This document shows, in pieces, positions 9,846 to 23,118 of a DNA stretch of 32,000 bases. Position numbers and translations under genes: made by a program. The notes beneath the pieces were generated by a model. The model was given only the letters and a program-made list of their open reading frames with translations, did no database searches and was not told the origin of the DNA. The DNA is from Methylophilus sp. (GTDB lineage: Bacteria > Pseudomonadota > Gammaproteobacteria > Burkholderiales > Methylophilaceae): contig JBQVPB010000011.1 of NCBI GenBank assembly GCA_052437885.1, positions 13,793 to 45,792 on the forward strand. Direction: 5' to 3'. Numbering within the stretch: position 1 is the stretch's first letter; every line of letters starts with the position of its first letter.

Positions 9846-10259
9846 TCAATGCATATCAAGCCGTTGATTCAATGCACGATATTGTATTTTCATGCGCGTA
9901 CAAAACCTGCGTTTTGCCACCACCCTGAGTTGATCAAAGATCAATTGTTTCCATACGAACTGTGCCTTGATGACCTGCTCGTTGGTGTCTGCGATCTGAT
10001 GCTGTTTGCGTCGCTTTCGTTGTGGCGTTCTCAAGGCGGCATAGGCATGCTGCTTGATGCTATCCAGTTTGTCAGCCGGGGCCGCCAATGAGCCTGATAT
10101 CCAGCGGTGAAATATGGCCGGCTTCACATTCGCCACTTTGATAGCCTGATGCAGATTTAAAGTCCCCAGATAGGCGCCGATTTTCAAGCTCCATTCAAGG
10201 GAATATTGCGTCTGCAGCTTTTCAATTCTGCTTTTATTTTGCATGGTTTTATTGTGCAT
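9846..10259 (-). CDS. hypothetical basic protein with a possible HTH-like segment
   Basis: 137-aa ORF in an AT-rich islet. The segment LHQAIKVANVKPAIFHRWISGSLAAPADKLDSI resembles phage-type HTH ('..RW.sG...P') motifs. It is followed by a basic stretch, RTPQRKRRKQHQ. No confident family. Confidence 0.45.
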   Translation of the reverse strand: MHNKTMQNKSRIEKLQTQYSLEWSLKIGAYLGTLNLHQAIKVANVKPAIFHRWISGSLAAPADKLDSIKQHAYAALRTPQRKRRKQHQIADTNEQVIKAQFVWKQLIFDQLRVVAKRRFCTRMKIQYRALNQRLDMH

Positions 10260-10496
10260 ATGATTTCCCTTTTTTTATAAATGTAATATTCATAAATTAG
10301 ATTTATAAATATAAATAAACTATTTAAATCAATTGGTTATACAATAATATTCATGTGTTACCACTCTATCAGTCATCCGACATTTCTACCAATAAAAATG
10401 TTGGAAAATTGCGTGCAGGAAATTTTTTGCAAACTAAATGCGTTATAAATCTGTCACAAAAGGGAAACCAAGCAACCTGATAGCCTTTGAAATAAC

Positions 10497-11420
10497 ATGA
10501 CCATTACGCATACCACTGAAACCAAACTCATCCAGGACGTAGAAAATTTACGCATTCAATTCCCGCAGGCAAAAGACCTATACAGAGAAGTCTGTCGTGT
10601 GATGTTCTTTCGATACGGCATTCAGCCAACAGCAAACAAGCTTTACCAGCTGGTGCGTAAAGGCACCATGACGATACCGGCGCAGGCGGTCAGTAATTTC
10701 TGGTCCGAACTCAGACTTAAAAACCGGGTAGATATCGAGCAATCTGGCTTGCCAGACAGCTTGCGCGAATTTGCAGGCGAAGCCCTCAGTACCTTATGGA
10801 AATCTGCGCTGGAAGTCGCCAGACAAAATGTGAAAGAAAAACAGTCTGCCACCAATGTCCTTGAAAATGCTTACAGGCTTGAGCTGGAAAGTTGCAAGGC
10901 TCAACTCCGTAAACTTGAAACTGTGAATGCAGAGCAGTCTTCGGAACTGATGACGCTGAGAAAGCAGTTGCAGGAGAGCGACAAAAGATTCCTCATTGAT
11001 CATCAGGTATCAGCCACCCACAAAGAATCCGTCAAAACGCTGCAATACGAAAAATCGGCGCTGGAAGGGTCACTAAAGAGCATCAATAACGAGTTTGATA
11101 CCGAACTGAATAAACTGCATGCCGCCTTGAAGTTGTCAGAAGACCGCTTTAGAAAACTGGAGTCAAAATCATTTACCGATGTAGACAGAGAGAGACAGCG
11201 CACATACAAGCTGGAGTCTGAAATCGCGGAGTTGAAAAAAACCATACTCAAAGAACATGCAGTCAACAAAACCCAGTCAGCCAAAAATCAAAAGCTGGTG
11301 AATGAGCTGCGGGAAAATGTCGGCCTGATCAAAGGTCAGTTAAAAGAATCACAACGCCAGCAACTGGTAGCGTCTAACAAGTTAAAGCAGATAGAGAGAA
11401 AAAAGCCATTGTTGAAATGA
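10497..11420 (+). CDS. KfrA_N-like DNA-binding protein with a long coiled-coil
   Basis: 307 aa. The N-terminus (PTANKLYQLVRKGTMTIPAQAVSNFWSELR) resembles the KfrA N-terminal DNA-binding domain pattern. The remaining ~200 aa are heptad-rich, charged coiled-coil (LRKLETVNAEQSSELMTLRKQLQESDKRF...). Confidence 0.5.
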   Translation: MTITHTTETKLIQDVENLRIQFPQAKDLYREVCRVMFFRYGIQPTANKLYQLVRKGTMTIPAQAVSNFWSELRLKNRVDIEQSGLPDSLREFAGEALSTLWKSALEVARQNVKEKQSATNVLENAYRLELESCKAQLRKLETVNAEQSSELMTLRKQLQESDKRFLIDHQVSATHKESVKTLQYEKSALEGSLKSINNEFDTELNKLHAALKLSEDRFRKLESKSFTDVDRERQRTYKLESEIAELKKTILKEHAVNKTQSAKNQKLVNELRENVGLIKGQLKESQRQQLVASNKLKQIERKKPLLK

Positions 11421-11448
11421 AAAACTCTGGGCCCAAGTCTAACCATCT

Positions 11449-11760
11449 TTAATTTCGCATAATGTATAGCAAGTCGTAAATAACGGGGTTTGATGCCAGT
11501 ATTACAGCCCCTGAGAGCATGGCTGTCACTGCCATCAGTGACATTTTTGCATATCCACCTTGCATTAATTCCAAGGCCCTTCTAGCTTCTACATCTCCAA
11601 GAATCATAAGTTTTAATACTGTCTCACCGTCTGGTTTAGACAATCCCTGTTTCCAATTAGAAACCGTTCCTCTCGTTTTTCCTAAAGCCTGAGCTAGCTT
11701 GTAATCGCTCTCAATGTTTTTGTTCTTCTTAACTTCTTCTACTAAGTCATAGCCTGACAT
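11449..11760 (-). CDS. phage A HTH (Cro/CI-type) regulator with a hydrophobic C-terminal segment
   Basis: 103 aa. HTH is DYKLAQALGKTRGTVSNWKQGLSKPDGETVLKL. C-terminal hydrophobic stretch is MSLMAVTAMLSGAVILASNPVIY. AAGGAG lies 7 nt upstream of the ATG. Divergent from the structural operon. Homolog of 22723-23028. Confidence 0.7.
   Translation of the reverse strand: MSGYDLVEEVKKNKNIESDYKLAQALGKTRGTVSNWKQGLSKPDGETVLKLMILGDVEARRALELMQGGYAKMSLMAVTAMLSGAVILASNPVIYDLLYIMRN
11452..11479 (+). other. hybrid dif-like site (attL of prophage A): consensus XerC arm plus central region plus degenerate XerD arm
   Basis: ATTTCGCATAA-TGTATA-GCAAGTCGTAA compared with E. coli dif GGTGCGCATAA-TGTATA-TTATGTTAAAT. 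The left arm and spacer match; the right arm does not. Confidence 0.7.
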
Positions 11761-11812
11761 ACGTCACTCCTTACTTATTAATTAATGGATGCATTTTATT
11801 AGTATCTATCTA

Positions 11813-11860
11813 TTGACACAACGTCCCTAAATAAATACTATGTCCCTAAATTCATACTAT
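11813..11860 (+). promoter_or_regulatory. candidate early promoter of phage A with a tandem 19-bp operator-like repeat
   Basis: TTGACA (11813-11818), 17 nt, TACTAT (11836-11841). Repeat copies are GTCCCTAAATAAATACTAT (11823-11841) and GTCCCTAAATTCATACTAT (11842-11860), 17/19 identical and directly abutting. Confidence 0.45.
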
Positions 11861-11925
11861 GTAGACAACGAACCTGCCCCCGTTGTTCTGCAAATTCAAT
11901 TAGGGGCTATATAAGGGAATCAAAA

Positions 11926-12207
11926 ATGCAAATGAACCTACAAGTCCTTTCCATAGGCGCAATCGAATCAGGCACTAGTCAAGCAACCCGCAGACCATGG
12001 CACCGCCGCACATTCCAATGCTTTGATTTAGATGATCAGATAGTCGGTTCTATTACCCTGTACGCGCCAGAAGACGAATTAAAGGCTTATACGCAAAACG
12101 GCAAATATGTAGCGACTGTTACTAAGTCACAGGGCGATGGCGGCACGTTTGAGTTTCGCATCACTGCATTGCAGTTGATGACTGCACCACAAAAGGCTGC
12201 AGCTTAG
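11926..12207 (+). CDS. small phage protein, possibly the ssDNA-binding (gpV-like) protein
   Basis: 93 aa. First gene of the rightward operon. Homolog of 22290-22553 (shared QVLSIG..ESG.SQ....WHRRTFQ, GKY.A.V). The function is assigned only from size and position, so the call is tentative. Confidence 0.5.
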   Translation: MQMNLQVLSIGAIESGTSQATRRPWHRRTFQCFDLDDQIVGSITLYAPEDELKAYTQNGKYVATVTKSQGDGGTFEFRITALQLMTAPQKAAA

Positions 12208-12214
12208 AGATAAC

Positions 12215-12249
12215 AAAAAAGCCAACTGACTCGAATCAATTGGCTTTTT
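12215..12249 (+). terminator. conserved hairpin (attenuator or terminator) between the small gene and rep
   Basis: A6, then GCCAACTGA / TCAATTGGC (9-bp stem with one mismatch), loop CTCGAA, then T5. Almost the same sequence occurs in phage B at 22247-22280. Confidence 0.45.
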
Positions 12250-12279
12250 CTAATTTTAACGACTCGGAATCGCTAAAAC

Positions 12280-13239
12280 ATGGAACTAAGTATAGACCAA
12301 AGTTTTGACCATATCAATGATGCAGCGCTAGATGTTAGAGGCAATACAGGCATTGAAAAACCCTTTGAATACAGATTAAAAACACGAACATTTTTAAATA
12401 ATACGGTTGAGTTTGTCATGTCACGCATAAAGCATCGAATACCGAAGCTCCACAGCGACCCTATCTACGGGGAAATGACCTCATACACCAAAACCCTAAC
12501 CGATGAAGAAAGGGCGGCAAAAGATGCAGAAAACCTCAGTCGCGCAGTCAGGCGTGCAAAACAGGCTGTTTACTTCTCTGTCATGCAAATATCAGCAGAT
12601 CATCTGCTTACCCTTACAACTCGTGAAAACATCCAAGACCGTGAAAAATTCTTTACGGTTTTTACTAAATTTATCCGGCTCGTTAGAACCAAGATCCTTG
12701 TGGACGGCCGCCTTGTATCGACCCCGCGTCGCCCGTTCCATTACGTTGCTGTACCTGAGCTCCAAGACCGTGGTGCATATCATATGCACTGTGCAGTTGC
12801 TGGCTTTCAGGACGTTAAGCTGCTTCGTGCTTGTTGGTATGTTGCGCTTGGTGGCTCTGTTGGTGATTCTTCCGATACTGCGCTTGGTGCTATTAATGTC
12901 AGGTACAAACAAAGGCGGCTCGGTGGTCAATCAGAAACCTTTAAAACCTTTCAACTTGTCGGTTACCTCACGAAATACATTGATAAGGATTTCGCGGCAG
13001 ATAAGGCACTTCGCCTACACCGCTACCGTAAATCAAAAGACGTTCCTAAGCCAATCGAGTTCGACCAAGTCCTCATGGCCTGTAACTACCATGGAAACGA
13101 TTTTCTTGACGCGATCATTGAGGTTAACAGTATTGCCGCCTTTGTCACAGGGCAAAACACTGCAGGCATGATTCAGTGGAACAGGGGGCAAGATGTATAT
13201 GTATTACGTTCGGTCTTTCATGAAGAGCTGGAAGACTAA
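12280..13239 (+). CDS. rolling-circle replication initiator (HUH endonuclease, gpII-like)
   Basis: 319 aa. HUH motif is RGAYHMHCAV. Candidate catalytic Tyr region is LVGYLTKYIDKDF. Homolog of 21269-22216. Confidence 0.8.
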   Translation: MELSIDQSFDHINDAALDVRGNTGIEKPFEYRLKTRTFLNNTVEFVMSRIKHRIPKLHSDPIYGEMTSYTKTLTDEERAAKDAENLSRAVRRAKQAVYFSVMQISADHLLTLTTRENIQDREKFFTVFTKFIRLVRTKILVDGRLVSTPRRPFHYVAVPELQDRGAYHMHCAVAGFQDVKLLRACWYVALGGSVGDSSDTALGAINVRYKQRRLGGQSETFKTFQLVGYLTKYIDKDFAADKALRLHRYRKSKDVPKPIEFDQVLMACNYHGNDFLDAIIEVNSIAAFVTGQNTAGMIQWNRGQDVYVLRSVFHEELED

Positions 13240-13309
13240 AGCAACAGAATTTGCCTTTCTGGCAAGTGTGGTCGCAGTCACTTTACTGCGTTTTTATTGA
13301 GGATGAATC

Positions 13310-13501
13310 ATGAAATTGATTAACAAAGTAGTAGCAGGTGTAACTGGTCTCTTGGTCGTTGGTCTTGCACATGCAGAAGTTCCGGCAACAGTTACCGCCG
13401 CCTTCTCAGAAGCAAATACCGATATCGCTACCGTAGCATGGGGCCTGGCTGTTGTAGCCTTCATTGGTACAACAATCCGCATCATTCGTAACCGCGCATA
13501 A
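13310..13501 (+). CDS. major coat protein (gpVIII-like)
   Basis: 63 aa. Signal peptide MKLINKVVAGVTGLLVVGLAHA, acidic N-terminal region, hydrophobic core WGLAVVAFIGTTI, and a basic C-terminus RIIRNRA. This is the canonical inovirus coat layout. Confidence 0.7.
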   Translation: MKLINKVVAGVTGLLVVGLAHAEVPATVTAAFSEANTDIATVAWGLAVVAFIGTTIRIIRNRA

Positions 13502-13511
13502 TGCAAGGGTA

Positions 13512-13538
13512 GGGCGGCATAAAAAAGTCGCCCTTTTT
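13512..13538 (+). terminator. candidate terminator or attenuator after the coat gene
   Basis: GGGCG / CGCCC stem (13512-13516 / 13529-13533) followed by T5 (13534-13538). The loop is long at 12 nt. Confidence 0.35.
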
Positions 13539-13540
13539 CC

Positions 13541-13876
13541 ATGGGATTCCAATTAAAAGATATTTGTTACCCTGATCAACAAACTGCAGTTGATGCGTTT
13601 TTCTTGTCACAGCAAATGCACCTACAGTCAACACCTGACGATACGAGTATTTTCTATTTTCAGAAGTACCAGAACCAGTGGTCTATATGTAGGCAAAACA
13701 CAAACACGAACACTCCCTCAACGTGTTCAACCATAGAAAACCCCGTTCTCTCAGAGTGCGTATACGCAAGTGACCCTGTATCAAATTTCATGACTGGTTT
13801 AGAGCTGGGTGGCTATGTGGCCGCTGTTATTGCAATCGCAGCAATTGGCAAAGTCATCAGAGAAAAGGCTATATAA
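13541..13876 (+). CDS. phage A protein with a C-terminal TM anchor (minor virion or assembly protein)
   Basis: 111 aa. MGFQLKDICYPDQQTAVDAF... aligns with MGYQLKDVCYSTETMAQDAY... of 20609-20941. C-terminal helix is LGGYVAAVIAIAAIG. Confidence 0.55.
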   Translation: MGFQLKDICYPDQQTAVDAFFLSQQMHLQSTPDDTSIFYFQKYQNQWSICRQNTNTNTPSTCSTIENPVLSECVYASDPVSNFMTGLELGGYVAAVIAIAAIGKVIREKAI

Positions 13877-13950
13877 ATGAGCGAATTAGGCAACCTCTAT
13901 ATGTGGGCAGGTTTTCTTTGTGCAGTCTTACCGGCATACGTCCTAGCATC

Positions 13951-15309
13951 ATGAATCCATCGAATAGTTTTTATGAGTGGTGCGTGGGCGCTACCCACTG
14001 GATATGCGGACGCGGACCGCTCATTATGTTACTCCTCCTGCTGACCCCAGTAATCTCTAATTCAGCAGAGGAATACGCAAAACCACGATTCTACTTATCA
14101 AACTTTGCTGACATTTATTACGATACACAAGAAGCTGCTTGTTCTGCAGGTGCACCCCGTCAAGTAGCCAATAGCGGTACTCTAACAAGTGCTATCGTTG
14201 CTTATTCCAACGGAAACCGCAACATGCTAGGAACCTGCTGGATTAAGTCCACGCCATTTAATCAGGTAGGCACCTCTGTTTCAAACCTCAATGTACTAGC
14301 GCAACATAGCTGCCCTGCAGGCTATACACTTGGCCCAGCTAACCAAACAAACATCTACCAGCGCCTCTGCACAATTGCAAGTTGCCCATCAGGCACCACG
14401 CTAAATACGGCCACAAATAAATGCGATGACAACTGCTTACCCATTAAAGGCCAGCTAGCTTCTTTTGGCTTGAACTGTTCCTCAGAAACCTCCCAAGCTA
14501 TGCCAGTATGTATGCCTAATAATTGCGCGGCTAACGTTATAGATACAGCAAGTGTAAGGCTCGGAAACTGTTGGTATGGTTCAAATACAGCTAGATACAC
14601 CGGCGAACGTTGTAATGGTCAACGGTCGTCAAGTTCATTCTCAAACCCCTCAAACGAAAATCCGCCGCCAGCAGACAAGCCTGAAACAGACTGCATCAAA
14701 CAGGGGAAAAGTTTTGGCTATGTGAACGGTGTACCAGTATGCGTGCCTAAAGGTTCTGCAAGCGCAACACCTATTACACAAACAAACCAAAACACCACTA
14801 CAACTACAAACACCGATTCAGGCGGCAACACCACATCGAGCACAACAACAGAAACGAAAAATGCGACACAAGAAGGCGACCAAGTTACAAGCCAGATAAT
14901 AAAAACAAACCCTGACGGCACAAAAACCGAAGAAACAAAGACAGAGCCTGTCTATCAATTTTGCGCAACAAACCCCACTCACCCGATATGCAAGAAACCT
15001 GCAAGCGAGGAGGAGGAGGGTGTAGACCCCTGTGAGGACAGGCCAGACTTACCACAGTGTTATGACAGGGGTGAACCCACCGATACAGACACAATATCCA
15101 GTGTAAATAAGTCTTTCTCTTTTGCACCCCTTGCCATGGCATCAAGCGCAGGTTGCCCAGCAGACCGTGTATTTGTTCTTTCTGGCCGCTCATTTACAGT
15201 TCCTTTCGACAGGTTCTGCACGCTGGTCGCCTCTCTCAAACCTTTGATACTGGCATTTGCATACATGACTGCTGCCGGCATCATGTTTAATGGATGGAAA
15301 AATTCATGA
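13951..15309 (+). CDS. adsorption / minor coat protein (gpIII-like), Cys-rich with a Thr/Asn-rich linker
   Basis: The track ORF starts at GTG 13903. ATG 13951 or ATG 14026 (MLLLLLTPVISNSA/EEY) are more likely starts, so the start is ambiguous. There are many Cys, a linker TQTNQNTTTTTNTDSGGNTTSSTTTETKN, and a C-terminal TM helix LILAFAYMTAAGIMF. Position before pVI/pI. Homolog of 19237-20535. Confidence 0.6.
   Translation: MNPSNSFYEWCVGATHWICGRGPLIMLLLLLTPVISNSAEEYAKPRFYLSNFADIYYDTQEAACSAGAPRQVANSGTLTSAIVAYSNGNRNMLGTCWIKSTPFNQVGTSVSNLNVLAQHSCPAGYTLGPANQTNIYQRLCTIASCPSGTTLNTATNKCDDNCLPIKGQLASFGLNCSSETSQAMPVCMPNNCAANVIDTASVRLGNCWYGSNTARYTGERCNGQRSSSSFSNPSNENPPPADKPETDCIKQGKSFGYVNGVPVCVPKGSASATPITQTNQNTTTTTNTDSGGNTTSSTTTETKNATQEGDQVTSQIIKTNPDGTKTEETKTEPVYQFCATNPTHPICKKPASEEEEGVDPCEDRPDLPQCYDRGEPTDTDTISSVNKSFSFAPLAMASSAGCPADRVFVLSGRSFTVPFDRFCTLVASLKPLILAFAYMTAAGIMFNGWKNS
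14911..14963 (+). repeat. 53-bp block perfectly identical to the reverse complement of 19589-19641
   Basis: CCTGACGGCACAAAAACCGAAGAAACAAAGACAGAGCCTGTCTATCAATTTTG. Checked base by base against the reverse complement of 19589-19641. The flanking bases differ on both sides. Confidence 0.95.
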
Positions 15310-15575
15310 CTTGGTATACATGGGTTATTGCACTAGTCTCGCCTGTAGTAAAGAAGGTGCTTCTCGCCCTAGGTGTCGGAATAATCACATATACAGGCTT
15401 TGACTTGATGATCGGCCAGATACAGGGCTATATAAATAACCAAATGTCTGGCTTAGCTACAGAAGTCTTCCAGACCATTTCACTAATGGGCGTTCCTGAA
15501 TCCTTCGGCATCATCCTAGGTGCATACGCCTCTAGTGCAGCTTTGATGCAGGCTAAAAGGTTCGCACTACTATGA
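15306..15575 (+). CDS. gpVI-like minor coat / DUF2523-like membrane protein
   Basis: The track start is 15294. ATG 15306 aligns with the phage B homolog (MTWYTWVIALVSPVVKK versus MTWAAWVLALVAPIAKR) and gives an ATGA overlap with the pIII-like stop. There is also an ATGA overlap with the zot start (15572-15575). Confidence 0.6.
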   Translation: MTWYTWVIALVSPVVKKVLLALGVGIITYTGFDLMIGQIQGYINNQMSGLATEVFQTISLMGVPESFGIILGAYASSAALMQAKRFALL

Positions 15576-16801
15576 TCACTATAATTACTGGAACGCCTGG
15601 ACAAGGTAAGACAGCCTTATTAGTAAAAATGCTACTCGACAATGACAGGCTAATGGAATCTGCAAGACCAGTCTTTGCCTGTAACATTCCAGATCTCAAA
15701 ATCCCGCACGTCAAAGCGCCCCCTGTAAAAGAGTGGACTGTATTAAAACCACTCGAACTAGAGCCAGAAAAAGACAGGGCTGAATACGCATTCCCGCCTA
15801 ATTCACTACTGATTGTTGACGAGGCTCAGCTATATTTTGAGGCACAGTCATCCGGCTCAAGGAAGCCACCCCACATCCAAGCCCTGCAGACACATCGTCA
15901 TACCGGCCTTGATATAATCCTCATTAGCCAAAAACCCATGCTCATGCATGCAGATGTTCGTGCACTCTGCGGCCGCCACATACACTTAAGGAAGTCTTTC
16001 CTGCAGAGAAAACTTTACGAATGGCCGGAGTACTCAGATGTAAACAGTAAGGCGGCACTAAAAGAAGCCATCAGGAGGCCATACAAACCACCTAGAGAGG
16101 CCTTCAAATACTACACATCATCACAGCTACACACGAAGCAACAAGCCAGAACTAACCCCTTAATATTCGCGCTGCCTCTCTTAGCAATAATGCTTGCAGG
16201 CCTTTCCTACCGTTATTACACGACGCATCCACAATTATTCAATAAAGAGGCAAAAAATGAAGTTGGCCAAAACCTCAAAGTGGTCGAGAAGGGCGCGGAA
16301 ACTAATAATGCAGGACAGGCTCTTTCACAAGCTATACAGCACAGTCTCCCCATCGGGGTACACCCTAACCCAGATGCACCGGAAACCACTCAGGACGTAC
16401 ACGGTGATCCGGCCTTCAATGTCTCGAATGAGGTACACCCTTATTCTGGATTTACGTTTGTTCTCGTTGGCGTGGTGAAGTCAAAAGCAAACGAGCTTAG
16501 TTATTACAGGCTTTCAAATGGTGAGTATGGATTCACAGCAACCAGCACTGATCTAAAAGAACTAGGCTACTCCATCAAGGTAGCAAACAGGTGCACAGCA
16601 TACTTGGTGTACGAGAAGGCCAAGATAGTAGCTATTTGCGGCCTCCCAGAAGCCCCTAAAGCGCCTCAAACTGCCCGCAGTGACACAGAAGACCCAAAGG
16701 GGGATATTAGGGGGCGACAGCCCCTTGATGCAGACAGTATCGATATAACTCCGAAGAGCTGGGAAACTTATCATGCACCGTCGCCCCTTACGAAGTACTA
16801 G
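15572..16801 (+). CDS. Zot-family assembly ATPase (gpI-like)
   Basis: 409 aa. Walker A is ITGTPGQGKT and Walker B is LLIVDEAQ. A central TM helix LIFALPLLAIMLAGL precedes a C-terminal periplasmic domain. Homolog of 17781-18974. Confidence 0.9.
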   Translation: MITIITGTPGQGKTALLVKMLLDNDRLMESARPVFACNIPDLKIPHVKAPPVKEWTVLKPLELEPEKDRAEYAFPPNSLLIVDEAQLYFEAQSSGSRKPPHIQALQTHRHTGLDIILISQKPMLMHADVRALCGRHIHLRKSFLQRKLYEWPEYSDVNSKAALKEAIRRPYKPPREAFKYYTSSQLHTKQQARTNPLIFALPLLAIMLAGLSYRYYTTHPQLFNKEAKNEVGQNLKVVEKGAETNNAGQALSQAIQHSLPIGVHPNPDAPETTQDVHGDPAFNVSNEVHPYSGFTFVLVGVVKSKANELSYYRLSNGEYGFTATSTDLKELGYSIKVANRCTAYLVYEKAKIVAICGLPEAPKAPQTARSDTEDPKGDIRGRQPLDADSIDITPKSWETYHAPSPLTKY

Positions 16802-16820
16802 GCCCCCTGCTAAACAAATA

Positions 16821-16844
16821 AAAGCCACTTATGTGGCTTTTTTT
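16821..16844 (+). terminator. rho-independent terminator after zot (phage A)
   Basis: AAAGCCAC / GTGGCTTT stem (16821-16828 / 16833-16840), loop TTAT, T-run to 16844. Confidence 0.65.
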
Positions 16845-16900
16845 ACACCTTCGCTTAACTGCAGGAACACTACAATTCTTAACAATTGCTGCAAATTACA

Positions 16901-16963
16901 CGCGCCGCTAGGCGCGCCGTACTAAATTTATATTACGGACGTTTTACAACAGAATAATAAAAA
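16901..16963 (+). promoter_or_regulatory. phage A intergenic element: GC hairpin plus a highly conserved 42-nt block (candidate origin or packaging signal)
   Basis: Hairpin CGCGCC-GCTA-GGCGCG (16901-16916). The block at 16922-16963 is 40/42 identical to the reverse complement of 17580-17621, far above the surrounding similarity. Confidence 0.4.
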
Positions 16964-16966
16964 AGC

Positions 16967-17248
16967 ATGGGTTTTGATCAATCAAAATATATTGAGTTGC
17001 CGAAATGGTCGGACGAGTTGCGGCATCTGTATTGGATGATTAGATTTGAACGCCGGAATGTAGCGACGCGTAGAAGGTATTACAGGAAGGTAGAACGCGA
17101 GAAATTGCGTTTAGCTGAACTTGGTATCAATCAAACAAAAATAGCGGCTGTATGCCGCTATTTATCAAACTTCAAGAATGCAGAAACTTTAAGCCGGATA
17201 TTGGCCGAGATTGAGGCCCAAATGACGATAGATTTTAGAACGGTATGA
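16967..17248 (+). CDS. conserved small basic phage protein of unknown function (att-proximal)
   Basis: 93 aa. Alignable over most of its length with 17290-17577 (SKY.ELP.WS..LRHLYW.IR...YYRKVE.EKLRLAE.GI.Q.KIAAVCRYL.NFKNA.TL). No family recognised. Confidence 0.6.
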   Translation: MGFDQSKYIELPKWSDELRHLYWMIRFERRNVATRRRYYRKVEREKLRLAELGINQTKIAAVCRYLSNFKNAETLSRILAEIEAQMTIDFRTV

Positions 17249-17272
17249 AGGCCTCTTATTCTCTGACCTCCT

Positions 17273-17300
17273 ATTTCGTATAATGTATATTATGTTAAAT
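17273..17300 (+). other. dif: complete dif-like XerC/XerD recombination site at the junction of the two prophages
   Basis: ATTTCGTATAA-TGTATA-TTATGTTAAAT. The central region and XerD arm are identical to E. coli dif (GGTGCGCATAA-TGTATA-TTATGTTAAAT). The XerC arm matches at 7 of 11 positions. Confidence 0.8.
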
Positions 17301-17577
17301 CGCAGAAGAAAGCTAAGGCCAACTGATAATCTGGTTCTGCCAGCGTCTTTCGCAATGTACTAGCGTTTTTGAAGTTACAAAGATAGCGGCAAACAGCCGC
17401 TATTTTTATTTGTGCTATCCCAGCTTCGGCCAACCGCAATTTCTCTTTCTCGACCTTCCTGTAATACTTCCTACGTTTCGACTCGATACGTCCTTCTACT
17501 CGAATAATCCAATACAGGTGCCGGAGACTTTCCGACCAGTCTGGAAGCTCTACATATTTGCTGCCGTCAAATGCCAT
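17290..17577 (-). CDS. conserved small basic phage protein of unknown function (att-proximal), phage B
   Basis: The track ORF starts at GTG 17631. The ATG at 17577-17575 (MAFDGSKYVELP) aligns with the start of the phage A homolog (MGFDQSKYIELP). The last codons and the stop lie inside the XerD arm of the dif site. Confidence 0.6.
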   Translation of the reverse strand: MAFDGSKYVELPDWSESLRHLYWIIRVEGRIESKRRKYYRKVEKEKLRLAEAGIAQIKIAAVCRYLCNFKNASTLRKTLAEPDYQLALAFFCDLT

Positions 17578-17579
17578 GG

Positions 17580-17639
17580 TTTTTATTGTTCTGTTGTAAA
17601 ACGTCCGTAATATAAATCTAGTGGCGGCCACAGCCGCCA
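17580..17639 (-). promoter_or_regulatory. phage B intergenic element: conserved 42-nt block plus a GC hairpin
   Basis: 17580-17621 is the counterpart of 16922-16963 (40/42). Hairpin TGGCGGC-CACA-GCCGCCA at 17622-17639 occupies the same relative position as the phage A hairpin but has an unrelated stem sequence. Confidence 0.4.
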
Positions 17640-17741
17640 GACGTTGCGCCCAGCCGTCCGCGGTGCCCGCTGCCAGCTTGTCGCACTAGGAAACGACAGA
17701 ATGTTAATTAGTGTAATCATTGGTTTAAGATAAAGAGTTGT

Positions 17742-17766
17742 AAAAAAAGCACCTAAAAGGTGCTTT
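17742..17766 (-). terminator. rho-independent terminator after zot (phage B)
   Basis: AGCACCT / AGGTGCT stem with loop AAA. A7 on the + strand gives T7 on the - strand. Confidence 0.6.
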
Positions 17767-17780
17767 GTTCGGCAAGGGGG

Positions 17781-18974
17781 TCAGTACTTTGTAGCTGGCG
17801 ACGGTGCGTGATACGTATCCCAGCTTCTCGAATCCAGATTGATGTTGTCTGCATCAGGGGGCTGTCGCCCCCTAATATCCCCCAAGGTATCCTTGGCCTT
17901 AGCTTCGATGGTTTGGGGCTTTTGTGGGTCCTGTGGCAGGGCGCAGATAGCTACTATCTTGGCCTTTTCGTATATCAGATATGAGGTGCAGTTGTTTGCT
18001 ACCTTAACCGAGTAGCCCAGCTCTTGCAGCTCATCACTTGTGGCCGTGAATCCATACTCACCATTGAAAAGCCTATAGTAGCTAATTTCCTTTCTAGCGC
18101 CCTTCACTGACCCCACCAGAACGAAAGTAAAGCCAGAGTATGGATGAATGTCATTTGAGACGTTAAAAGCTGGGTCTGGTCCTGAGTACTCTTGCGCCCC
18201 CGGGGATTCGTGCAATTCACCATCGATTAGATCCCGACGAGGTTTTTTTGAATCTGTGCCGGCTTTGCTGGGTGCGCTGGAAGCCGCTTCCTGTATAGGT
18301 TTATCACTCATGCGGCCAGAAATACTTGTAAAAGCTCGATAGCCCATATAACCCATAAAAACGACAGCTAGAGCAAGATATATCCAGACCTGATGAAAGC
18401 GCCGAGGTTGCTTTGTATGCATCTCGCTGGACTTGTAGTATTTGAAGGATTCTTTAGGCGGTTTAAATGCCCTCTTCGCCGCTGCATCTAAGTTTGCCTT
18501 ATTGTCCGTGTCGTTATATTCCGGCCATTCGTAAAGCTTGCGGCCGAGGATAGTATCTCTGATGTGGATATGGCGGCCGCAGAGGTGACGAACATTGACG
18601 TCTACAAGGTTAGGCTTTTGCGTAAGCAGGATTATATCTAAGCCCGTATGGCGGTGCGTTTCAAGTGCAGCAACGTATGGCGGTACTTTGGTTCCTGCAG
18701 AGCGTGGGCGGTAGACCCTCTGAGCTTCATCCAGTATCAGGTATGAGTTAGGAGGAAAGGTAAAGTAATCAAGCATTAATGACGGGTCATCAGGGTCTGG
18801 CCGCTTCTCTGTCCACTCTTCTACAGGTGGCGCCTTTACATGCTCGATTCTTAAGTCAGGTATGCCCATAACAAAAACAGGCCTCGCATTTGAGGCCTTG
18901 TCGTTTGCTAGGAGCATTTGAACGAGTAACGCAGTTTTGCCCATGCCAGGCACGCCAGTGATTATTGTAATCAT
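17781..18974 (-). CDS. Zot-family assembly ATPase (gpI-like), phage B
   Basis: 397 aa. ITGVPGMGKT (Walker A), LILDEAQ (Walker B), TM helix VWIYLALAVVFMGYMGY. The C-terminal domain is shared with phage A (DPAFNVSN..HPYSGFTFVLVG, YEKAKIVAIC, GDIRGRQP). Confidence 0.9.
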   Translation of the reverse strand: MITIITGVPGMGKTALLVQMLLANDKASNARPVFVMGIPDLRIEHVKAPPVEEWTEKRPDPDDPSLMLDYFTFPPNSYLILDEAQRVYRPRSAGTKVPPYVAALETHRHTGLDIILLTQKPNLVDVNVRHLCGRHIHIRDTILGRKLYEWPEYNDTDNKANLDAAAKRAFKPPKESFKYYKSSEMHTKQPRRFHQVWIYLALAVVFMGYMGYRAFTSISGRMSDKPIQEAASSAPSKAGTDSKKPRRDLIDGELHESPGAQEYSGPDPAFNVSNDIHPYSGFTFVLVGSVKGARKEISYYRLFNGEYGFTATSDELQELGYSVKVANNCTSYLIYEKAKIVAICALPQDPQKPQTIEAKAKDTLGDIRGRQPPDADNINLDSRSWDTYHAPSPATKY

Positions 18975-19240
18975 AGGATACCCAGCCTTTTAACGACCAT
19001 GAGAGAAGCCGCAGAGGTAATGCCGCCAAGCATTATTCCTATCGATTCAGGAATACCCATCATTGTGGCTATACCGAGTATGTCAGATGTAGTGCCACCA
19101 ATCGATTGATTAATCATTGTGGTTAACTGACCTATTGCCATATCGAAGCCAGTAACCGTAATAATGCCTATGCCTAGTGCGACCATAACCCTTTTTGCGA
19201 TTGGTGCGACTAGTGCGAGAACCCAAGCAGCCCAAGTCAT
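18971..19240 (-). CDS. gpVI-like minor coat / DUF2523-like membrane protein, phage B
   Basis: 89 aa. ATGA overlaps with both neighbours. Homolog of 15306-15575. Confidence 0.6.
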   Translation of the reverse strand: MTWAAWVLALVAPIAKRVMVALGIGIITVTGFDMAIGQLTTMINQSIGGTTSDILGIATMMGIPESIGIMLGGITSAASLMVVKRLGIL

Positions 19241-20535
19241 GAATTAGCCCCTCTCAAACCCATAAATAAGAACATGGCCGCAGACAGATAAGCGAATGCA
19301 AGCATGAACGGTTTAAACATGGATGCGTAATTACAAAGCCATGTATAACTGAATGTGATTGACTTGCCAGCTATAGATACTGACTTGTCGGCAGGGCATG
19401 AACCGCCTGAGGTAATGGTTACAGGTGAAAAGTTGATTGTTCGTGCGTCTGTAGTGAGATTATCGCCCTCCTCAGCTTCACCAACCTTCATGCATCTAGG
19501 CAGGTCTGGGTTGTCCTCGCAGGAATCTTCGCCCTCCTCATCCTCACTGGCAGGTTTCTTACATATCGGGTGCGTAGGGTTTGATGCACAAAATTGATAG
19601 ACAGGCTCTGTCTTTGTTTCTTCGGTTTTTGTGCCGTCAGGATTCGTTTTTATAGTCTGGCTTGTTACTTGATCGCCATCCTGTGTGGCGTTCTTTGTTT
19701 CAGTGGAGGTATTAGAAGTACTGTTTCCGGCTGAATCTGTGTTAGTCGTCGTTGTGGTACTTTGGTTTGTTTGGGTAACGGGCGCAGCACTAGCTGAGCC
19801 TTTAGGTACGCAAACTGGAACACCGTTTACATAACCGAAACTTTGCCCTTTTCGTACGCAATCAGTTTCTGGCTTATCGGTAGGGTCTGGGGCGTTTGTA
19901 GGGTTTGAAAAGGAAGCCGCAGAAGGTTGTCCGCTACAACCCTCTCCCGAATATCTGGCTGTATTAATACCATAATAACAACTGGTGACAAATACGCTTG
20001 TAGTGTCAACGATGACGGCCGCACAGTTATTTGGCATACAAACGCCCTGACCTGATGAAGTTCCAGCTGAGCAATTCAAACCGAAAGAGCCCATCTTGCC
20101 TTTCATTGGTAGGCAGTTGTCCTCGCATTGGTTTGTAGCTGTATTCAGCGTGGTGCCAGTGGGGCAAGCTGCTATTGTGCATGTGCGCTGATAGATGTTT
20201 GTTTGGTTTGCTGCACCAAGTAGATAACCAGCCGGGCAAGAATGCTGGGCTAATACATTCAGGTTTGAAACGGAGGTGCCTGTCGAATTGTATGGGGTAG
20301 ACTTAATCCAACATGTACCTAGCAGATTGCGTCCACCGGGGTATGAAACAATCGCACTAATTAATGTTCCATTGTTTGCAACCTGTCGAGGTGCACCAGA
20401 TGAACATGCAGCTTCCTGAGTATCGTAAAAGTTATCAGGAAAGCCTGACAGGTAAAAACGAGGCTTAGCGTATTCCTGAGCTGAGAAACAGGAGCTAGAA
20501 ACCAATAAGAGGAAAAGAAGAGATAGCAGCTTCAT
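19237..20535 (-). CDS. adsorption / minor coat protein (gpIII-like), phage B
   Basis: The track ORF starts at 20583. The ATG at 20535 gives a clean signal peptide MKLLSLLFLLLVSSSCFSA/QEY. It has the same Cys pattern, Thr/Asn linker and C-terminal TM helix as phage A. Confidence 0.65.
   Translation of the reverse strand: MKLLSLLFLLLVSSSCFSAQEYAKPRFYLSGFPDNFYDTQEAACSSGAPRQVANNGTLISAIVSYPGGRNLLGTCWIKSTPYNSTGTSVSNLNVLAQHSCPAGYLLGAANQTNIYQRTCTIAACPTGTTLNTATNQCEDNCLPMKGKMGSFGLNCSAGTSSGQGVCMPNNCAAVIVDTTSVFVTSCYYGINTARYSGEGCSGQPSAASFSNPTNAPDPTDKPETDCVRKGQSFGYVNGVPVCVPKGSASAAPVTQTNQSTTTTTNTDSAGNSTSNTSTETKNATQDGDQVTSQTIKTNPDGTKTEETKTEPVYQFCASNPTHPICKKPASEDEEGEDSCEDNPDLPRCMKVGEAEEGDNLTTDARTINFSPVTITSGGSCPADKSVSIAGKSITFSYTWLCNYASMFKPFMLAFAYLSAAMFLFMGLRGANS
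19589..19641 (-). repeat. 53-bp block, perfect inverted copy of 14911-14963
   Basis: The reverse complement equals 14911-14963 exactly. Lies inside the gpIII-like gene. Confidence 0.95.
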
Positions 20536-20608
20536 TTTGTGAGAGTGATAACAGGTAAAACCACAATAAGGAAGCCAGCCCAAAGATAAATGTTTGCAAG
20601 TTCATCCA

Positions 20609-20941
20609 TTAGAACCTCACTCTTAAAAAGCGCCACAGAAAAGCCACTATGATCGCGCCAGCTACAGCAGCACCGAGTTCAGTACCAGCTATAAATTGGG
20701 CGGTTGGGTCGCTATGGTCTGTACATGTTGAAAACGCCGGAAAGTTGATGTCAGGGCATTGAGTAAGGCCACCAGTAGACAAACTGTGAGCGCCCATGCA
20801 CCAAGCACCAGAGACTTTTTCAGGGTAGAAAAAAACGCTTGTTGAATCGTTAACAACGAATGCAGGCTGCATAGATTGTGCATATGCATCTTGTGCCATA
20901 GTCTCAGTTGAATAACAAACATCTTTTAGTTGATAACCCAT
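20609..20941 (-). CDS. phage B protein with a C-terminal TM anchor (minor virion or assembly protein)
   Basis: The ATG at 20941 (MGYQLKDVCY) aligns with the phage A homolog start. C-terminal helix is LGAAVAGAIIVAFLW. Confidence 0.55.
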   Translation of the reverse strand: MGYQLKDVCYSTETMAQDAYAQSMQPAFVVNDSTSVFFYPEKVSGAWCMGAHSLSTGGLTQCPDINFPAFSTCTDHSDPTAQFIAGTELGAAVAGAIIVAFLWRFLRVRF

Positions 20942-21001
20942 GATTTTGTCCAAAAAATGGCGAGGTGATGAACCCCGCCAAACTCGAAGGAAGCAAGCTT
21001 A

Positions 21002-21193
21002 TTAACCAGCCTTGCGCTTCAACCAGAACAGAACACCAACGGTTACAGCCATGCCCAAAAACAGGCCACCAAGTGTTACACCGTCAGCTTCGGCAGTTGC
21101 AATCGCGTCAGCTACACCAGCTGGCAGAGCAGCCATTGCAGAAGTTGCCAGACCAGTTAAACCCAAACCTAATGCATAAGAGATACGTTTCAT
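21002..21193 (-). CDS. major coat protein (gpVIII-like), phage B
   Basis: 63 aa. Signal peptide MKRISYALGLGLTGLATSAMA, an acidic segment, hydrophobic core LGGLFLGMAVTVGVLFW, and a basic tail LKRKAG. Confidence 0.7.
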   Translation of the reverse strand: MKRISYALGLGLTGLATSAMAALPAGVADAIATAEADGVTLGGLFLGMAVTVGVLFWLKRKAG

Positions 21194-21268
21194 GATTACA
21201 CCCTTTAAAAAAATCGACAGTAGACGACTGTCAGCGTAGTGGCCAGAAAGGCCAATTCGATAATTCGG

Positions 21269-22216
21269 TTAATCCACATAAGCAGAACGGAGGATGTAAA
21301 TATCCTCCCCCCTATTCCAGGGAATCATTTGTGTAGGATGTTGCCCTGTGACAAATTGGGCTATTTGTGACACCTCGATTAGGGCGTCAATGAAGTCTTT
21401 ACCGCCTGCATTACAGGCCATAAGCACTTGGTTAAACTCGATAGGTTTAGGAATATCACGCGCTTTTAGATAGCGGTGTTGCCCCAACTCCGAAGTGTGT
21501 GCGAAGTCCTTATCAATGTATTTTGTAAGGTAACGAACAAGGGAAAAAGTCTTATGTGTTTCTGATTGATTACCCCAGCGTTTCTGGCGGTATTGCACAT
21601 CAACTTGACCAAGCGCAGTATCGCCAGCATCAGAGATATTGCCACCCAGCGCGACATACCAACAGGCACGTAGGAAACGAATGTCCTGACGACCAACCAC
21701 AGCGCAGTGAAGATGATATGCACCACGGTCCTGTAGTTCAGGGACAGCCACGTAAGCATAGGATTTACGCGGTACTGTAATGAGGCGACCATTGACCAGA
21801 ATCTTTGTGCGGACAAGTCTAATAAAGCGCTGGAAAATTTCGAAGTATTTAGCGCGCTCTGTAATGTTTTCACGGGTCGTGAGTGTGAGCAGATGATCAG
21901 CGCCGATTTGACGGATTGCATAGTGAACAGATTTTTTTGCACGTCTTACCGCCCTTTCTAAGTTTTCTGCATCTTTAGCAGCCTTCTCTTCATCTGTCAG
22001 TGTGCGAGCGTACGTAGTTAACTCGCCGTATGTCGGCTCTTGAGTTAGCTTTGGAATTGTATGCTTAATGCGCGTCATGATGAAGTCGATAGTGTTATTT
22101 GCAAAGGTCACAGTCTTAAGTTTGTATTCGTGTACGCTTTCAATGCTTCTATGGTTCTTTGGGTCAAGGTAGTCATCGTTGACAACTGAATCAAAGGTAT
22201 TTAAAGTTAAGTCCAT
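21269..22216 (-). CDS. rolling-circle replication initiator (HUH endonuclease, gpII-like), phage B
   Basis: 315 aa. RGAYHLHCAV (HUH) and LVRYLTKYIDKDF. Long identical runs with phage A Rep (DHLLTLTTRENI, FIRLVRTKILV, YVAVPELQDRGAYH, LRACWYVALGG). Confidence 0.8.
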   Translation of the reverse strand: MDLTLNTFDSVVNDDYLDPKNHRSIESVHEYKLKTVTFANNTIDFIMTRIKHTIPKLTQEPTYGELTTYARTLTDEEKAAKDAENLERAVRRAKKSVHYAIRQIGADHLLTLTTRENITERAKYFEIFQRFIRLVRTKILVNGRLITVPRKSYAYVAVPELQDRGAYHLHCAVVGRQDIRFLRACWYVALGGNISDAGDTALGQVDVQYRQKRWGNQSETHKTFSLVRYLTKYIDKDFAHTSELGQHRYLKARDIPKPIEFNQVLMACNAGGKDFIDALIEVSQIAQFVTGQHPTQMIPWNRGEDIYILRSAYVD

Positions 22217-22246
22217 GTTTAAGCCATTCCGAGTGGTTTAAATTAG

Positions 22247-22280
22247 AAAAAGCCAATTGATTACAGTCAGTTGGCTTTTT
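22247..22280 (-). terminator. conserved hairpin between the small gene and rep, phage B
   Basis: Counterpart of 12215-12249. It is the AGCCAA...TTGGCT stem flanked by A and T runs. Confidence 0.45.
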
Positions 22281-22289
22281 CGTTGTCTA

Positions 22290-22553
22290 TCACGCTGGTT
22301 TTACTGGTAAGAGGTCAACAATAGACGGTACTAAGCGCCCGTTATCCCCTGCCCTGTTACGAACCACGGCTGTATATTTGCCGCCTTCTTTGTACGAATT
22401 CAATTTGTCCAAATCGCCGTAAACAGGGATATTGCCTGCTACTTTGGCTTCTATGTCATAAACTTGGAATGTGCGGCGGTGCCACTCTGTACCGCGCTGG
22501 GATTTGCCGGATTCTGTTTCGCCGATAGATAAAACTTGAATTTGAATTGACAT
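22290..22553 (-). CDS. small phage protein, possibly ssDNA-binding (gpV-like), phage B
   Basis: 87 aa. Homolog of 11926-12207. The function is tentative. Confidence 0.5.
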   Translation of the reverse strand: MSIQIQVLSIGETESGKSQRGTEWHRRTFQVYDIEAKVAGNIPVYGDLDKLNSYKEGGKYTAVVRNRAGDNGRLVPSIVDLLPVKPA

Positions 22554-22622
22554 GATTTAAGCCCTTATATAGCCCCTTGTGTGTGTAAATCGGAACTATG
22601 GGGGCAGGTTCATAGTCCGTGT

Positions 22623-22666
22623 TAAAGTTAGGACGTATGTTAATCCTAAGTTTATGACGTTGTCAA
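22623..22666 (-). promoter_or_regulatory. candidate early promoter of phage B with two operator-like repeats
   Basis: On the minus strand: TTGACA (22666-22661), 18 nt, TAACAT. Repeats ACGTCATAAACTTA (22660-22647) and ACGTCCTAACTTTA (22636-22623) match at 11 of 14 positions. Confidence 0.35.
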
Positions 22667-22722
22667 TACTTTAGAACGGTATAAAATACTGACTATTGAA
22701 ATAAAGCTGATAGGAGCTATAA

Positions 22723-23028
22723 ATGGCCGGATACGGACTGATTGAAGCAATCAAAGAAAATACAGATTTGAAAAGCGATTATGCGATCGCAAAGGAAATC
22801 GGCGTAGGCAGGCAGAATATAAGCACCTGGAAGAACACGGGAACGATGCCAGACGCGATAACGGTATTGAAGTTAGCAGAACTAGCCAAGCTGACACCAT
22901 CACAAGCCCTAGCGAAGCTGCAAGGCGGCTATGCAAGTGTGTCACTGATGGTAGTGACAGCAACCCTTTCTATCGCCCTGCTTTCAAGCCATTTCCCAGC
23001 TAACCCACTGTATATTATGTTAAATTAA
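22723..23028 (+). CDS. phage B HTH (Cro/CI-type) regulator with a hydrophobic C-terminal segment
   Basis: 101 aa. HTH is DYAIAKEIGVGRQNISTWKNTGTMPDAITVLKL. Hydrophobic stretch is VSLMVVTATLSIALLSS. TAGGAG lies upstream of the ATG. The 3' end overlaps the hybrid dif site. Confidence 0.7.
   Translation: MAGYGLIEAIKENTDLKSDYAIAKEIGVGRQNISTWKNTGTMPDAITVLKLAELAKLTPSQALAKLQGGYASVSLMVVTATLSIALLSSHFPANPLYIMLN
22998..23025 (+). other. hybrid dif-like site (outer att of prophage B): degenerate XerC arm plus central region plus perfect XerD arm
   Basis: AGCTAACCCAC-TGTATA-TTATGTTAAAT. The 17 nt TGTATATTATGTTAAAT are identical to 17284-17300. Confidence 0.7.
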
Positions 23029-23118
23029 AGATATGCGGCAATTCAGTGCCATAAACGCATTCCCCCTGTTGTGATTTGAGTTACTATCTGGACACATCCA
23101 TGCCACAAGGTGCTTAAG

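Follow-up and report, generated by a model that had tools for sequence, protein, structure and literature searches.

Two integrase-less filamentous prophages with mirror-image half-dif attP sites at a probable chromosomal dif locus of Methylophilus sp.

How can two filamentous phages that carry no integrase come to lie head to head at one chromosomal site? The question is raised by a stretch of 32,000 nucleotides from Methylophilus sp., called here the window, in which two related phage genomes meet at a dif-like sequence and read in opposite directions. An earlier note on this DNA had pointed to three dif-like sites and had proposed that one phage supplies a XerC-type arm and the other a XerD-type arm. 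The window is very probably the chromosomal dif locus of Methylophilus sp. with two integrated, integrase-less filamentous phages, A and B, whose half-dif attP sites mirror each other. The coordinates of the sites and genes are collected in Table 1.

Table 1. Sites and genes of the two prophages; fractions in brackets count matches to the dif arm.
Feature	Position	Strand	Remarks
L, attL of phage A	11452-11479	+	ATTTCGCATAA-TGTATA-GCAAGTCGTAA; host XerC arm, spacer, degenerate XerD arm of phage A (4/11)
M, middle site	17273-17300	+	ATTTCGTATAA-TGTATA-TTATGTTAAAT; XerC arm from phage A (C7T), XerD arm from phage B
R, attR of phage B	22998-23025	+	AGCTAACCCAC-TGTATA-TTATGTTAAAT; degenerate XerC arm of phage B (4/11), spacer, host XerD arm (11/11)
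Phage A HTH repressor, 103 aa	11449-11760	-	3' end runs through L (..LLYIMRN*), stop from host flank
Phage A ssDNA-binding-like protein	11926-12207	+	phrog_2866
Phage A rolling-circle replication initiator	12280-13239	+	PF23343
Phage A major coat protein	13310-13501	+	Inovirus Coat B
Phage A small structural-module protein	13541-13876	+	phrog_12382
Phage A attachment (pIII-like) protein	13903-15309	+	
Phage A pVI-like minor coat protein	15294-15575	+	DUF2523
Phage A Zot/pI assembly ATPase	15572-16801	+	
Phage A terminal gene, 93 aa, 'last' family	16967-17248	+	phrog_27692
Phage B 'last'-family gene, 93 aa	17290-17571	-	stop codon inside XerD arm of M
Phage B Zot/pI assembly ATPase	17781-18974	-	
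Phage B pVI-like protein	18971-19240	-	
Phage B attachment (pIII-like) protein	19237-20583	-	
Phage B small structural-module protein	20609-20953	-	
Phage B major coat protein	21002-21193	-	
Phage B replication initiator	21269-22216	-	64% identical to that of phage A
Phage B ssDNA-binding-like protein	22290-22553	-	
Phage B HTH repressor, 101 aa	22723-23028	+	runs through R (..PLYIMLN*), stop from host flank

All three 28-mers given by the earlier note, with their shared TGTATA, are present exactly on the + strand. The repeats among them are not due to chance: TGTATATTATGTTAAAT and ATTTCGYATAATGTATA each have two exact occurrences in the window, against 0.00 and 0.02 expected from shuffled sequences. 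When the 32 kb were scanned with both dif halves, no position other than L, M and R matched at 13/17 or more. M is the sole full dif of the window, and it agrees at 23 of 28 positions with the dif of E. coli, which we take to be GGTGCGCATAATGTATATTATGTTAAAT. As had been proposed, it is built from one arm of each phage, the XerC arm bearing the C7T variant of A, at its fifth innermost base, and the XerD arm being that of B.

The three sites stand in direct orientation, and the asymmetric spacer is intact in each. The palindrome of the host dif continues for 7 nt beyond the 28-mer on each side, as ATCTTTA-dif-TAAAGAT (11445-11451 and 23026-23032), and this extension provides an immediate TAA stop for both prophage repressors. 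The KOPS-like motif GGGNAGGG has 5 matches in the window against 2.7 expected, and its polarity is not informative. The GC skew of the window is dominated by the mirrored phages.

Phage A occupies positions 11480-17272 (5.8 kb, genes on the + strand) and phage B positions 17301-22997 (5.7 kb, genes on the - strand). They have collinear inovirus gene sets in mirror orientation. The order in both is an HTH repressor on the opposite strand, an ssDNA-binding-like protein, a rolling-circle Rep (PF23343), Coat B, a small protein, a pIII-like protein, a DUF2523 pVI-like protein, Zot/pI and a terminal gene of 93 codons. As in Inoviridae/Tubulavirales, Rep, Coat B, the pIII-like and pVI-like proteins and Zot/pI form one module of 5-8 kb, and the closest GenBank records are the Inoviridae sp. 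genomes MW202882.1 and MW202693.1. Searches of Pfam and PHROGs with the nine collinear genes of A and the 'last' gene of B returned only inovirus functions and an HTH repressor, and no integrase or recombinase. The remaining genes of B were assigned by homology to those of A. For the 'last' gene of B, the mechanical open reading frame extends to 17631 (GTG), and homologues point to the ATG that gives 93 aa.

Aligned DNA segments of A and B are 64-75% identical, save for one segment of 43 nt (86-95%), and their proteins are 34-68% identical. The region from A to B is one long imperfect inverted repeat with its centre at M. The 43-nt element lies just upstream of the terminal gene in each phage (16921-16963; 17580-17622), in surroundings of about 70% identity, and may serve as promoter/operator, origin or packaging signal.

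Such long inverted homology could in principle support homologous recombination, by which a tandem pair in the same orientation would have become a mirrored one when one phage was inverted. An inversion of B in place would, however, also have inverted the half-sites that flank it, and L, M and R are all direct with the spacer intact. Single B-type prophages and circular B-type genomes, moreover, show the XerD-arm layout without any partner. An origin of the array by inversion is therefore barely credible.

The host flank on the XerC side consists of cmk-aroA-tyrA and a KfrA_N gene, and the one on the XerD side of an HD-GYP regulator, a hybrid kinase, a PQQ dehydrogenase and CMAS. The order cmk-aroA-tyrA, dif, PQQ dehydrogenase-CMAS is common to the related contigs L030 and L032, and other Methylophilaceae contigs have prophages at the same locus. 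Neither xerC nor xerD lies within the 32-kb window. The gene that adjoins dif on the XerC side (10497-11420) encodes a 307-aa coiled-coil protein with the KfrA_N domain, a plasmid-type DNA-binding domain, and is kept at this position in relatives. In relative L013, the stretch of 2.3 kb that separates dif from the KfrA_N homologue was considered as a possible extra element, and turned out to hold ordinary host chemotaxis/response-regulator genes.

If crossover takes place in the spacer, the outer arm of each junction should be that of the host and the inner arm that of the phage. The ancestral host dif that the earlier note had predicted is found exactly in L013 (JAESFR010000032.1), a syntenic contig with about 76% nucleotide identity in the host flanks and a single B-type prophage. 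Its full dif reads ATTTCGCATAA-TGTATA-TTATGTTAAAT, with the host-type C at position 7.

The attP predicted for phage B, with no XerC arm, TGTATA and a XerD arm, has its counterpart in circular relatives. L016 and L017 are the same 5953-nt sequence from two samples/runs in two rotations, with 30-nt overlaps of their ends, and thus represent a circular molecule. Their attP, AGCCTAGACGC-TGTATA-TTATGTTAAAT (2/11 - 6/6 - 11/11), lies within a repressor gene (121 aa) that is convergent with the terminal gene. Over the aligned segments, the circle and phage B share 73-82% identity, and the circle is a relative of B rather than B itself. MW202693.1, a deposited circular Inoviridae genome, has only the repressor and terminal-gene region in common with these phages, and its attP, TGTTAAAACAC-TGTATA-TTATGTTCAAT (4/11 - 6/6 - 10/11), is in the same place. 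The variant arm TTATGTTCAAT of this circular genome recurs in prophage L030, where it stands in the regenerated dif and is presumably phage-borne; the repressor end of L030 holds the host-type TTATGTTAAAT. This is the placement of arms that a crossover in the spacer predicts.

The attP of phage A, as reconstructed from the junctions, is ATTTCGTATAA (10/11) - TGTATA (6/6) - GCAAGTCGTAA (4/11). It rests on these junctions, as a circular form of phage A or of an A-type relative was sought and none was recovered. The site had been likened to the TLCphi type, and in its anatomy the likeness stands, consistently with the relatives; in gene content it does not, as phage A encodes no XafT/DUF3653 protein. 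A-type relatives L026-L029 have ATTTCGCATAA-TGTATA-ACAAGTCGTTA abutting the same KfrA_N host gene as phage A. The degenerate arm of L036 is identical to that of A.

The same sites bear on the CTXphi route, in which ssDNA with two inverted dif-like sites folds to a hairpin attP, XerC exchanges one pair of strands and the prophage is locked in. A and B are Zot-encoding inoviruses with an RstA-like replication module, as would suit this route. Each phage and each circular relative, however, has one dif-like site without an inverted partner. In addition, the spacer is identical to that of dif at 6/6 positions, whereas CTX-type central regions are non-homologous (PMC4246890; bioRxiv 10.64898/2026.06.12.731946), and a double-stranded half-site by itself explains both junctions. 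Integration of A and B by the CTXphi route is very unlikely.

The earlier note had suggested that homologous phages be surveyed for the arm type behind the repressor gene. A scan of species-representative genomes gave one relative, and the survey was made on metagenome, viral and Logan contigs. It contains 13 distinct B-type elements, all with the repressor on the strand of the site, and 5 distinct A-type elements, all with the repressor on the opposite strand. The full dif adjoins the terminal gene in every surveyed element. The rule that arm type sets orientation thus holds for 18/18 distinct elements, with zero exceptions. Repressor C-termini, in 20 protein clusters, are B-type in 17 and A-type in 3. 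The XerD-arm layout is the majority type in this phage group, and single B-type lysogens occur at the same locus in relatives L013, L030, L031 and L037.

The existence of such single lysogens allows for another origin of the array, in which two strains with one prophage each were joined at the shared dif by the metagenome assembler. The window contig belongs to a MAG, so that the co-residence of A and B rests on one contig, and in related phages the att site is often the very point where contigs break. The single-lysogen configurations, however, have just 21 nt in common at M (ATAATG through the XerD arm), which is below the usual final assembly k-mers and makes a chimera unlikely. M also joins the T variant of A directly to the end of B, and the same pair of proteins is found on one 119-kb contig. 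Even in a chimera, both attP layouts and the orientation rule would stand.

Several other elements were seen in the course of the survey. MW202882.1 (L001), a circular genome of 5531 nt that is closely related to phage B, has the terminal gene and neither a repressor nor a dif-like site. In L032 (CALRJH020000003.1, 10001-20276), a PM2-like double jelly-roll prophage (P2_N/P2_C capsid, Phage_GPA Rep) occupies the same Methylophilaceae dif locus. The prophage terminates in the XerD-arm half-site TAATTGAAGTC-TGTATA-TTATGTTAAAT, after which come an orphan gene of the terminal family and then the host PQQ dehydrogenase. The idea that this 'last' gene is part of the PM2-like phage was dropped on host synteny; an orphan remnant left by an older inovirus is the likelier reading. 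In L033-L035 (about 10001-20255), a truncated terminal-family gene lies beside a full dif, and an island follows on the XerC side with an AAA_15/AAA_21 ATPase, a DnaB_C-like protein, AlpA and a 1660-aa type ISP restriction enzyme. This island may be another dif-associated element.

In both prophages, the open reading frame of the repressor spans the entire 28-bp site and takes its TAA stop from the host flank. The consensus arm therefore sits inside the coding sequence, and not just beyond it as had been stated. Since the gene spans the whole site, integration shortens the protein. The reconstructed circular forms encode repressors of 130 aa (A) and 121 aa (B) with a basic tail, and the former would be reduced to 103 aa once integrated. 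The prediction for B agrees with the 121-aa repressor of the circular relative.

Other relatives translate the site in the remaining two frames, as VYYVK and CILC. Sites in the CILC frame are located at 275-302 in L002, 92-119 in L005, 3655-3682 in L008 and 4361-4388 in L030. The attP copies that continue past the site in this frame (MW202693.1; L005/L008) have a one-base variant of the XerD arm, TTATGTTCAAT or TTATGTAAAAT. This substitution abolishes the TAA that the canonical arm has in frame, and the host arm restores the stop after integration.

On the coding strand of the repressor, the two 17-mers, TATACATTATACGAAAT and TGTATATTATGTTAAAT, differ at 5/17 positions. It had been proposed that substitutions at 3 arm bases would flip the polarity of integration; five are needed, because the asymmetric spacer must flip too. 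The 6/6 match of the spacer in both phages is itself evidence of selection for function. The nearest relatives of the repressor of phage A include both A-type and B-type proteins, at an equal 69% identity, and the repressors are homologous right up to the spacer. Together, these observations indicate that the arm type switches between close relatives at that point.

The 93-aa terminal gene is found in all A-type and B-type relatives examined, L006 included. In the circular relatives it faces the repressor across attP, and this makes it the obvious candidate for an integration accessory factor, by position. The 'last' protein has no match in Pfam, PDB or BFVD. Its AlphaFold model (pLDDT 80.7) has four helices, for which Foldseek found no match in BFVD below E = 1, and the best hit of a PDB sequence search, MarR at E = 0.077, is not significant.

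A known Xer activation factor was also looked for. Pfam searches detected no DUF3653 in the nine proteins of phage A (E up to 0.01) or in either 'last' protein (E up to 5), and tblastn of a bona fide DUF3653 protein from L006 against the window gave noise only. The terminal protein was considered as a hidden relative of XafT/XafV as well. This found no support: hhalign against the XafT-like protein of L006 gave a probability of 0.5%, and there was no fold match in BFVD.

The L006 contig (IMGVR_UViG_3300024967_000026) starts and ends with the same 17-mer, GTTTCGTATAATGTATA. Its positions 1-1570 form a mini-element of 1.57 kb, which encodes a protein of XafT architecture (HTH+DUF3653), is bounded by XerC-arm (A-type) half-sites and adjoins an A-type phage. 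The mini-element may be a TLC-like satellite. With a real HTH+DUF3653 gene beside an A-type phage, supply of a Xer activation factor in trans is conceivable.

The terminal gene also contains a perfect hairpin, ATAGCGGC-N5-GCCGCTAT, within the codons for its invariant IAAVCRY motif (17141-17163; 17377-17400). The hairpin is present in L001, L002, L004, L013 and L030-L033 as well. In the close clade not even its synonymous positions differ; the distant clade has lost it. As it is followed by a T-run on the repressor strand, it could terminate repressor transcripts in the circular form.

From the arrangement of arms and genes, we infer that integration proceeds through the host XerC/XerD recombinases. 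In this reading, both phages carry their half-dif attP where the repressor gene ends, opposite the 3' end of the terminal gene. In attP(A) it is a XerC arm with the full 6-bp spacer and no XerD arm, and in attP(B) the full spacer with a perfect XerD arm and no XerC arm. Since the spacer is asymmetric and matches at 6/6 positions in both, each phage should align with dif in one way only. Since the half-sites are opposite relative to the phage genes, the insertions of A and B would fall on the XerC and the XerD side, respectively, in mirrored orientation. Each integration would leave a rebuilt full dif at the prophage end opposite the repressor, so that the working dif comes to consist of the XerC arm of A and the XerD arm of B.

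The reaction would probably be a full two-step strand exchange, which spacer identity at 6/6 positions permits, as in TLCphi and unlike in CTXphi/VGJphi. The recombinase for the degenerate arm may be recruited through its partner, and a phage factor may assist, for which the position of the terminal 93-aa protein suggests it as a candidate. In the case of phage B, XerD would be well bound on both partners and, after activation, could carry out the first exchange; cooperativity would then bring in XerC to resolve the junction.

It is possible, if doubtful, that the XerD-arm-only attP uses an uncharacterised Xer pathway that mirrors the one of TLCphi, with XerD well bound and XerC recruited to a non-site, and that the terminal 93-aa protein represents a new class of Xer activation/accessory factor for either polarity. 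If so, A and B would be a natural matched system for learning what sets the order of strand exchange.

To our knowledge, mechanistic work on Xer-exploiting elements has dealt with three layouts only, those of CTX, VGJ and TLC. The arrays studied in Vibrio cholerae have elements that pile up on one side of dif. The present lineage differs in that the XerD-arm-only layout is the commoner one, the arm type switches between close relatives at one position of the repressor gene, and prophages lie on both sides of a dif made up entirely of phage-borne arms. As a matched pair, A and B could be used to ask which recombinase starts when the XerC arm is missing, and whether prophages resist FtsK-driven excision despite perfect XerD arms at both flanking sites. 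For annotation, a one-sided search of dif or a scan for XerC arms only would miss most of these phages.

The lack of an integrase of their own, insertion at a chromosomal dif, dif-like borders and a full dif regenerated at one junction mark A and B as probable IMEX (integrative mobile elements exploiting Xer). CTXphi and VGJphi have central regions that block the second strand exchange (bioRxiv 10.64898/2026.06.12.731946). CTXphi uses two inverted sites with a non-homologous centre, whereas A and B have one site each with a spacer that equals dif at 6/6 positions. In VGJphi both arms are recognisable and the 7-bp centre is unlike dif, whereas in A and B one arm matches at 4/11 positions and the 6-bp centre is that of dif.

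TLCphi (PMC6744903, PMC9226527) resembles phage A in its good XerC arm, dif-identical centre and non-canonical XerD arm, and in having a functional dif restored at its XerD side. Two positions of the XerD arm are important for XafT-driven recombination (PMC9226527); at one of them, the fifth innermost, the degenerate arm of phage A keeps a G. Unlike TLCphi, phage A lacks XafT (HTH+DUF3653) and is a full inovirus rather than a satellite. The layout of phage B is the mirror image of that of TLCphi. XafT-like DUF3653 proteins are also found in dif-integrated phages of Xanthomonadales (PMC6744903), in contrast to A and B, where no DUF3653 was found. The orientation of the DUF3653 gene relative to dif varies by subclass (PMC6744903).

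An example of the XerC-arm layout outside TLCphi is the group of XacF1, Cf1c and phiLf in Xanthomonas, whose attP consists of the XerC arm and spacer of dif, TATACATTATGCGAA, and in XacF1 lies within a regulator gene (ORF12) that is split/shortened by integration (PMC5666396). Phage A is alike in that its XerC-arm attP is in a regulator coding sequence, with a predicted shortening from 130 to 103 aa. The hosts belong to different classes.

The XerD-arm-only layout of phage B had seemed impossible to place in the CTX, VGJ or TLC classes. It is in fact known from phiRSS0 (PMC3816273) and from the 'left-armed' sites of PM2-like phages (PMC12715192). The attP of phiRSS0, a Restivirus of Ralstonia, matches dif along 19 nt (XerD arm and spacer only) and is found at the 3' terminus of ORF13, the repressor/immunity gene (PMC3816273). 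In the deposited sequence (JQ408219), the site reads CAGGTCAACGA-TTTATC-TTATGTAAAAT. Both phiRSS0 and phage B are integrase-less inoviruses at dif, with XerD-arm attP sites at the 3' ends of their repressor genes. phiRSS0 differs from A and B in its replication and structural modules and in having no 'last'-family gene, and its repressor has weak HTH similarity to those of the A/B group (27% over 48 aa). Its variant phiRSS1, a non-integrating form with neither repressor nor attP, is paralleled here by MW202882.1. The phiRSS0 paper does not term the site XerD-arm-only and does not discuss orientation (PMC3816273).

A 2025 survey of dif-targeting double jelly-roll (PM2-like) phages distinguishes full, 'left-armed' (17-bp, XerD arm and spacer) and 'right-armed' attP sites, PM2 itself having ATTTAACATAATATAAA (PMC12715192). 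According to the same survey, PM2-like phages and Vibrio inoviruses have a common lysogeny module of repressor, regulator and attP (PMC12715192). As described there, the attP of PM2-like phages lies between the repressor and a small regulator gene, which form the prophage termini, and one junction regenerates dif, as in A and B. The Vibrio module is described with a regulator that is a homologue of XafT and forms one operon with the repressor, whereas the terminal gene of A and B, with no detectable relation to it in sequence or fold, is convergent with the repressor. The available text of the survey does not describe an array of sibling inoviruses whose arms are opposite (PMC12715192).

As both layouts have been described before, the locus is a clean natural example rather than a new kind of system. 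The window extends both layouts to a new host family, and adds a case of sibling phages whose opposite arms occupy one and the same position, as well as a head-to-head array in which a working dif is made from the arms of two phages.
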